This document shows positions 30,802-32,196 of a stretch of DNA of 64,000 nt, in pieces (the first letter of the stretch is position 1; the number at the start of each line of letters is the position of its first letter). A program made the translations under genes and the position numbers. The stretch comes from Minisyncoccota bacterium (GTDB lineage: Bacteria; Patescibacteriota; Minisyncoccia; Phycocordibacterales; UBA1006): the NCBI GenBank assembly GCA_036405175.1, contig DASWYC010000002.1:321700-385699 (forward strand), given 5' to 3'. The notes beneath the pieces are model-generated. The model was not told the origin of the DNA and ran no database searches. It saw only the letters and a program-made list of their open reading frames with translations.

Positions 30802-32196
30802 TTAGTAGTCCCGAAGCATCTTAATTTTCTTATTATTTCTCAACTTCTCATGCACCTTTGCTTCAATCTGACGGATACGTTCGCGGGTTACCCCAAACAT
30901 CTTTCCTACTTCTTCCAAAGTATGCTGGATTCCATCGGTAAGTCCAAAACGGAGTTCAATAATCTTGCGCTCCTTTTCAGAAAGCTCGCTCAAGATTTCA
31001 TGCATTTGCGTTTGGAGAATACGCTTTGCAGATTGTTCTGACGGTGCAGCAATTTTGCTGTCGGCAATAAATTCGCCACGAGTTGATTTTTCCTCATCAG
31101 AGTTAATTGGCTCTTCAAGAGAAAGTGTCTCCTGATTGATTTCTGAAATCATATGAACCTTATCAATTTCAAGTCCCATTTCTGCTGCAATTTCTTCCGG
31201 CAACGGCTTGCGTCCAAGGTCTTGTGAAAGACGGCGCAATACTTGTTTGTATTTTGAAATAGTTTCCACCATGTGCACCGGAATACGGATAGTACGTGAC
31301 TGATCCGCAAGCGCACGGGTGATTGATTGGCGAATCCACCACGTTGCATAGGTTGAGAATTTAAATCCTTTGGTCCAGTCAAACTTTTCTACGGCTTTAT
31401 AGAGTCCGATGTTTCCTTCTTGAATAAGGTCAAGCAAGGTAAGATCTGGTGATCGGTTAGCATATTTTTTTGCGTGCGATACCACCAAGCGAAGGTTTGC
31501 TTTTGCTAAAAGATTTTTTGCTTCTTCATCTCCTGCGGCGATACGCTTTGCCAAATCTTTTTCCATTTGTCCGTTGATCAAATTATATTGTCCAATTTCT
31601 TTCAAATACATTTGAATAGAGTCGTACTTTGAACGTTCTGCAATTGAGTCGTCATCAAAGTAGCTCGCAACTTTTGATTTAGTCTTTCCGCCCTCTTCCT
31701 CTAAAAAGTTTCCTCCTTCATACACCTGAATTCCTGCCTCACCAAGCTTTTCATAAATATCTTCAATGATCGTTACATCGTTTTCAACATCAGGAAATAC
31801 TTTCAAAATTTCATCAAAGGTAATAAAGTGGCGAGCACTTCCTTTTTTGATGAGCTCTTCAATAAGGAGATCTTTGTCCCCTGATGACATCTTCTTTACG
31901 GTTGATGGTACCTCTTCTCGTGATACTGGCTTTGCTGGTGCTGAAGATTTTTTTGGAGCCGCCTTGGTTGGTGCTTTCTTAGGAGCTACTTTTTGTGGCG
32001 CCTTCTTAGGTGCAGCTTTTTTGACTGGTTGCTTTGCTGCTGGTTTTTTAACAGCCTTAGCGGGAGTCTTTTTTACAAGCACTGATTTTTTAACCGGTAC
32101 TTTCTTTGCAGGAGTTTTTTTAGCAGCTGCTTTTGCAGGTGCTTTCTTAGGAGCTACTTTTTTGACAGGCTTTTTGGTTGGCATAGTAGATAACAA
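30802..32196 (-). CDS. rpoD: RNA polymerase sigma factor RpoD (sigma-70) with N-terminal Lys/Ala/Pro-rich repeat tail
   Basis: regions 2-4 conserved ([26 protein letters not shown]; [24 protein letters not shown]); first about 95 aa are KKxPAKK repeats. Confidence 0.9.

Follow-up and report, generated by a model that had tools for sequence, protein, structure and literature searches.

A lysine-rich, histone H1-like tail precedes a retained region 1.1 in the primary sigma factor of Paceibacteria-type Patescibacteria

In a 64-kb stretch of Patescibacteria DNA (64,000 nucleotides; hereafter the window), we found that the primary-type sigma factor RpoD begins with a polycationic tail of lysine, alanine and proline (aa 1-96; 31897..32184, minus strand), which has a net charge of +29 and is predicted to be disordered. 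The tail is genuine and conserved in the clade. It is an addition to the protein, and the auto-inhibitory DNA-mimic module of the sigma factor is retained behind it. By analogy with known H1-like tails, the tail may serve as a sequence-independent DNA tether on a complete sigma factor, a reading that we favor with moderate confidence. Patescibacteria account for a large share of bacterial diversity, and to our knowledge almost nothing is known about their transcription initiation. A clade-conserved, dense polycation at the DNA-mimic end of sigma is a concrete, lineage-specific change in initiation. We found no description of a lysine-rich sigma tail in Patescibacteria, CPR or Parcubacteria in the open-access literature. 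No current model is overturned, since N-terminal extensions of sigma factors and H1-like bacterial tails are already known.

The rpoD (sigA) CDS encodes 460 aa and occupies 30802..32184 on the minus strand with its stop codon at 30802..30804, as placed by Pfam and the alignment to SigA. Regions 1.2, 2, 3 and 4 (aa 188-460; 30805..31623, minus strand) all exceeded the gathering scores of their Pfam families (PF00140, PF04542, PF04539 and PF04545, respectively). Since region 1.1 is above its Pfam cut-off as well, the assignment of this sigma-70 to the primary type in an earlier note on this DNA, made from the sequence alone, is upheld. Region 1.1 is found in primary sigma factors only. The best relative of RpoD with a solved structure is Bacillus subtilis SigA (PDB 7ckq chain F, E-value of 2.7e-99). 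The scores against the NCBIfam equivalogs PRK09210 (410.5 bits, cut-off 572) and TIGR02393 (329.8 bits, cut-off 354) were below threshold, which looks like lineage divergence.

The location of the gene also supports a role as the primary sigma factor, because the dnaG-rpoD pair lies beside rpoBC. The dnaG primase gene (32226..33920, minus strand) is directly 5' of rpoD, with its stop 41 nt from the ATG of the tail, and is preceded by rpoC (33933..37589) and rpoB (37608..40919) on the same strand. The four genes form a single tight co-directional cluster (30802..40919, minus strand), and the cluster is kept in a sister genome (L081, 1272..11374). A candidate promoter, TTGACG-17 nt-TATATT (32217..32245, minus strand), with 10 of 12 consensus positions matched and recognized by pattern only, overlaps the end of dnaG about 33 nt 5' of the rpoD ATG. 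Just past the rpoD stop there is a terminator-like hairpin of 13 pairs (30760..30789, minus strand), likewise a pattern match only.

The first 100 residues of RpoD contain 32 lysines, 20 alanines, 17 prolines, 12 valines, 1 arginine and 2 glutamates, giving a net charge of +31. The description of the N-terminus as an H1-like K/A/P polycation, given in the earlier note, is therefore correct. The 31 long ORFs of the window (15,033 residues; 7.6% lysine and 13.4% aspartate plus glutamate) were used as the composition baseline, against which the chance of at least 32 lysines per 100 residues is 1.4e-12 and that of at most 2 acidic residues is 7.5e-5. Among the six-frame ORFs of at least 80 aa in the window, the tail holds the most basic 30-residue stretch (+13 versus +9 or less). 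None of the other ORFs in the 64 kb has a comparable stretch, so no genome-wide habit is seen. KK doublets recur every 4-9 residues along the tail, and AlphaFold2 (with an alignment of 69 sequences) assigned no secondary structure to aa 1-95 (pLDDT 43-55). The tail thus shares these characters with H1-like nucleoproteins: it is rich in K/A/P, poor in acidic residues, disordered and KK-periodic. Its KK spacing recalls the xxAKK and SPKK units described for H1-like tails (PMC3643593).

This likeness to H1 is compositional and does not reflect homology, because the score of the tail against the Pfam HC2 family (PF07382) was 18.5 bits, below the cut-off of 40, and the tail alone had no match among PDB sequences even at an E-value of 10. 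The C-terminal domain of H1, chlamydial Hc1/Hc2 and Pseudomonas AlgP share with the tail the K/A/P composition, (S/T/A)PKK-like periodicity, disorder and polycationic character. However, they are free-standing nucleoid or chromatin proteins, unlike the sigma-fused tail, and the likeness is convergent.

It had been proposed in the earlier note that the tail stands in place of region 1.1 and hence that the auto-inhibitory module is lost. Neither proposal survived. Pfam Sigma70_r1_1 (PF03979) matched aa 108-163 with 47.1 bits against a cut-off of 22.5, and AlphaFold predicted with confidence (pLDDT 87-93) that aa 101-155 form a small helical domain, with helices at 101-118, 123-129 and 137-149. 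Together with the alignment to SigA, these place the folded region 1.1 at aa 101-160 (31705..31884, minus strand). A linker that is acidic and disordered (aa 161-187; 31624..31704, minus strand), in which pLDDT is less than 50 at aa 163-181, joins it to region 1.2. The retained module is acidic, with a net charge of -11 over aa 100-185, and the charge layout of the N-terminus is +29 over aa 1-96 and then -8 over aa 97-186. Residues 14-369 of B. subtilis SigA (371 aa) align to residues 105-460 of RpoD; regions 1.1 to 4 align without a large insertion, but SigA has no N-terminal tail. Since region 1.1 is present and SigA aligns from residue 105, RpoD is a SigA of the Bacillus type that carries about 100 additional residues at its N-terminus. 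The retention of region 1.1 implies that promoter-specific auto-inhibition is probably unchanged.

An obvious concern is that the start codon has been annotated too far upstream, that translation begins near region 1.1 and that the K-rich stretch is untranslated. In keeping with such an artefact, the ATG at 32184 has no Shine-Dalgarno (SD) motif, and there is a methionine at residue 99. However, the tail is kept in hundreds of homologues despite differing DNA sequences, and its reading frame is under purifying constraint: compared with a 90%-identical relative (L081), dN/dS of the tail is 0.19 (dS 0.88, dN 0.17), while that of region 1.1 plus the linker is 0.12 and that of the core is 0.011. 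Lysine columns are largely kept between the two tails, and the substitutions are mostly among A, P, V, T and S. A run of 100 open codons in the tail frame has a probability of 0.0025 by chance. A methionine near the start of region 1.1 is present in only 59 of 191 homologues, and therefore there is no conserved internal start. In 71 related loci, dnaG adjoins rpoD upstream on the same strand, and a median of 10 nt separates its stop codon from the ATG of the tail. In 75 complete genomic ORFs, the first ATG lies 1-15 codons past the in-frame upstream stop. With the occurrence of the tail in all 120 best homologues and in all 75 complete ORFs, the upstream start is real, as the earlier note had assumed, and the artefact reading is close to refuted. 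The coordinates of the note, 31911..32196, did cover the tail, while the four extra codons (MLST) that follow from the TTG at 32196, the start listed by the ORF program, are without support, because the homologues begin at the ATG at 32184.

The missing SD motif at the ATG at 32184 is uninformative, since SD motifs are nearly absent and the anti-SD sequence is altered. An SD-like motif was found upstream of only 4 of the 32 long ORFs in the window. The 16S rRNA gene lies at 59279..60807 (minus strand) with its 3' end at 59279..59300, and this end reads GGATCACTTCCAAA; its anti-SD core is CUUCC where the canonical one is CCUCC (CACTTCC versus CACCTCC in DNA). Translation in this genome seems to be initiated without classical SD pairing.

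Comparison with homologous proteins showed that the tail is conserved in the clade. The 120 best homologues (58-90% identical, 416-544 aa), all of which have the tail, are, where names are given, mostly from Paceibacteria, Nomurabacteria or the Patescibacteria group. The 75 complete ORFs are from species-representative genomes; the median tail among them is 81 aa long, with 41% lysine and a net charge of +31. A second search was seeded with P0244, a protein whose closest named relatives are Kaiserbacteria, and of the 116 proteins that could be scored, from lineages named Kaiserbacteria or Paceibacteria, 110 had a strongly basic N-terminus; the exceptions are gene models of 351-370 aa that begin within region 1.1. 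The tail is a lineage trait of Paceibacteria-type Patescibacteria. In the Kaiserbacteria-type RpoD proteins (P0244 and P0391-P0436), K/R-rich tails occur with no precomputed Pfam match to region 1.1, and in P0244, P0165 and P0231 an additional segment separates region 1.2 from region 2. In the Kaiserbacteria-type proteins, region 1.1 may have diverged strongly or have been remodelled.

So that the tail itself would not bias the outcome, the core only (aa 101-460) was searched against 1.84 billion cluster representatives. Among the 150 nearest clusters, 26 had a 40-residue N-terminal window with a net charge of at least +12. The tail is missing from some close relatives, for example P0123 (364 aa, 58% identical). 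Some tail-bearing representatives are outside the type of clade to which RpoD belongs: P0154 (661 aa), which has about 200 residues of AKPAAKK-type repeats, and P0155 both score above the cut-off of the Firmicute-type RpoD. P0207 and P0233 are comparable to P0154. Basic tails have therefore originated repeatedly on primary sigma factors. In P0154, P0207 and P0233 (551-1006 aa), the 100-200 N-terminal residues are near-perfect AKPAAKK or KPAASKPAP repeats.

Low-complexity sequence of this kind might be a functionless expansion that is tolerated as harmless. The sequence of the tail is not conserved, its length ranges from 26 to 187 residues across homologues, and short repeats are present in it at the DNA level, all of which would suit such an expansion. 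What has been held through this variation, however, is the charge. In 191 homologues, the charge density of the tail is 0.35-0.42 per residue, about +0.38, despite the varying length, and acidic and aromatic residues are nearly excluded (medians of 1% for D plus E and 0% for aromatics; arginine is also at 1%). The tail persists in homologues down to 43-60% identity, and its dN/dS value argues in the same direction. Moreover, these genomes are very compact, as the short dnaG-rpoD gap shows. The expansion reading has one further point in its favor, the dispensability of the basic part of Mycobacterium tuberculosis SigA (PMC10011835), and we regard it as rather improbable overall.

The C-terminal domain of H1 and the H1-like tail of actinobacterial HupS bind the DNA backbone non-specifically. 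If the tail of RpoD acts as a tether, it would bind DNA in the same manner, as the tails of HupS and DdbA do, and would keep free sigma and the holoenzyme on the nucleoid. Such binding may speed up promoter search and the re-use of sigma. Because it is attached to region 1.1, which lies at the mouth of the DNA channel, the tail could add non-specific contacts to flanking DNA after region 1.1 has moved out. Selection acts on the charge density and KK spacing of the tail, not on its exact sequence.

It is also conceivable that the tail works within the protein, folding onto the acidic region 1.1 and linker or onto core RNA polymerase and thereby tuning either auto-inhibition or the passage of region 1.1 into and out of the DNA channel, and that it does not bind DNA. 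A basic-then-acidic order does recur in primary sigma factors (+29/-8 in RpoD, +19/-44 in M. tuberculosis SigA and +19/-17 in Streptomyces coelicolor HrdB), and region 1.1 plus the linker is, without exception among the homologues, retained and acidic (net charge between -3 and -13). If the two parts neutralized each other, their charges might be expected to vary together. We looked for such charge compensation in the 191 homologues and found no co-variation (Spearman 0.06, p 0.39). In addition, the +32 of the tail far exceeds the -8 that it would neutralize, so that most of its charge stays free. An intramolecular role is thus unlikely, though less so than a functionless tail. A 56-aa ORF with a net charge of -8 and no Pfam match lies directly 3' of rpoD (30539..30709, minus strand). 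As a general partner of the tail it was rejected: it is 92% conserved in the sister genome (L081-L083) and absent from 80 other rpoD loci.

A polycation of about +30 would bind DNA no more readily than RNA or polyphosphate. The tail may accordingly be directed to a polyanion other than DNA (nascent RNA, ribosomes or polyphosphate, for example), or may be a bristle for solubility or spacing, any effect on DNA being incidental. The chemistry of lysine polycations does not discriminate among polyanions, the tail is fully disordered, and the apparent SD-independent initiation indicates that the gene-expression machinery is unusual elsewhere too. On the other hand, the tail sits on the subunit that is dedicated to DNA recognition, and the H1-like tails documented in bacteria bind DNA. 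We consider a target other than DNA quite unlikely and prefer the DNA tether.

Close precedents for the tail come from actinobacteria. Like RpoD, the SigA proteins of M. tuberculosis and M. smegmatis are primary sigma factors with a disordered N-terminal extension that is first basic (A/K/R/P/T-rich) and then acidic, and this extension is invisible in solved structures. In M. tuberculosis SigA, whose sequence was matched to the PDB chain, aa 1-103 have a net charge of +19 and aa 104-206 of -44; in M. smegmatis SigA, the 60 N-terminal residues are basic (PMC11656743). The differences are also clear. The mycobacterial extension stands in for a folded region 1.1 (PMC11656743), whereas the folded region 1.1 is kept in the RpoD of Patescibacteria. 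RpoD therefore has the disordered basic-then-acidic extension of the sigma-A-N type without the loss of region 1.1 that goes with it. The charge per residue is +0.3 in the tail, almost from lysine alone, versus about +0.18 in M. tuberculosis SigA, and the acidic part is -8 versus -44. No sequence homology between the tail and the actinobacterial SigA extension could be demonstrated.

Deletion studies have been reported for M. tuberculosis SigA. Proteins without the first 42, 92 or 132 residues kept transcription and complementation, and only the acidic residues 132-179 are essential (PMC10011835). Removal of 205 residues lowered the steady-state Vmax about 100-fold, possibly via holoenzyme recycling (PMC11888270). 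Since the basic part of M. tuberculosis SigA can be deleted, a basic sigma tail can be dispensable in the laboratory. RpoD would be a cleaner model for basic tails than mycobacterial SigA, because its tail can be separated from an intact region 1.1.

S. coelicolor HrdB is another primary sigma factor that, like RpoD, combines H1-like xxAKK pentapeptide repeats with a region 1.1-type domain. It has the region 1.1-type domain, then AKKTT/AKKAA repeats (aa 74-160, +19) and then the acidic stretch (-17). The repeats are thus in the linker between regions 1.1 and 1.2 in HrdB, whereas they precede region 1.1 in RpoD. In Streptomyces DdbA, an H1-like N-terminus of 93 residues is fused to a DksA-like RNA polymerase factor and binds and condenses DNA in vitro (PMC3643593). 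DdbA resembles RpoD in that a component of the transcription initiation machinery carries a lysine-rich tail at its N-terminus, which in DdbA consists of pentapeptide repeats and is about 93 residues long. Unlike in RpoD, the fusion partner in DdbA is a secondary-channel factor, not a sigma factor, and DdbA is developmentally regulated and non-essential.

It was also suggested in the earlier note that the tail is a substrate of the SET-domain methyltransferase encoded 23 kb away. The gene itself is genuine: it encodes a SET-domain protein of 166 aa with a post-SET Cys motif (55585..56085, minus strand; PF00856, 86.6 bits). About 1,078 homologues were found, mostly of 125-190 aa, and the named ones are from Nomura-, Moran-, Vogel-, Azam- and Kaiserbacteria, which are Paceibacteria-type lineages. 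Methylation of tail lysines by this protein would tune the affinity of the tail for DNA and is compatible with a tether. Small SET proteins occur commonly in the lineages that carry the tail, and the sister genome holds rpoD and the SET gene on one 62.9-kb contig. However, we found no operon or neighborhood link between the SET gene and rpoD, and nothing favors sigma over other lysine-rich proteins as the substrate. The precedents from chlamydiae contradict each other: a Chlamydia pneumoniae SET protein is cited in PMC2904774 as methylating fragments of Hc1, while C. trachomatis NUE did not methylate full-length Hc1 (PMC2904774). Methylation of the tail by this SET protein is thus very doubtful.

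The tail may also bear on the composition of RNA polymerase. The alpha subunit of Parcubacteria has been described as lacking its C-terminal domain in PMC8321222, which cites PMC4508563; we found no mention of this loss in the main text of PMC4508563. We sought rpoA in the window and the related loci, and it was absent from them. If the C-terminal domain of alpha is lost, compensation by the sigma tail is attractive. In the broadest reading, the primary sigma factor of Paceibacteria would double as an H1-like nucleoid protein, supply contacts of the alpha-C-terminal-domain type and be tuned by SET methylation; the tail may hold the pool of sigma and holoenzyme on the chromosome and give upstream or flanking DNA contacts. 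That all of these hold together is very unlikely. If they did, the initiation of transcription in bacteria would be directly subject to a regulatory layer resembling that of histone tails. The altered anti-SD sequence, the reported loss of the alpha C-terminal domain and the tail suggest modified rules of gene expression in reduced genomes.

One further ORF overlaps the tail. It lies on the opposite strand (31766..32209, plus strand), encodes 147 aa and is rich in F, L, G and A. It is almost certainly not a gene. Because the lysine and alanine codons of the tail are mirrored on the plus strand, where AAA and AAG are read as TTT and CTT, this antisense ORF is a by-product of the tail.
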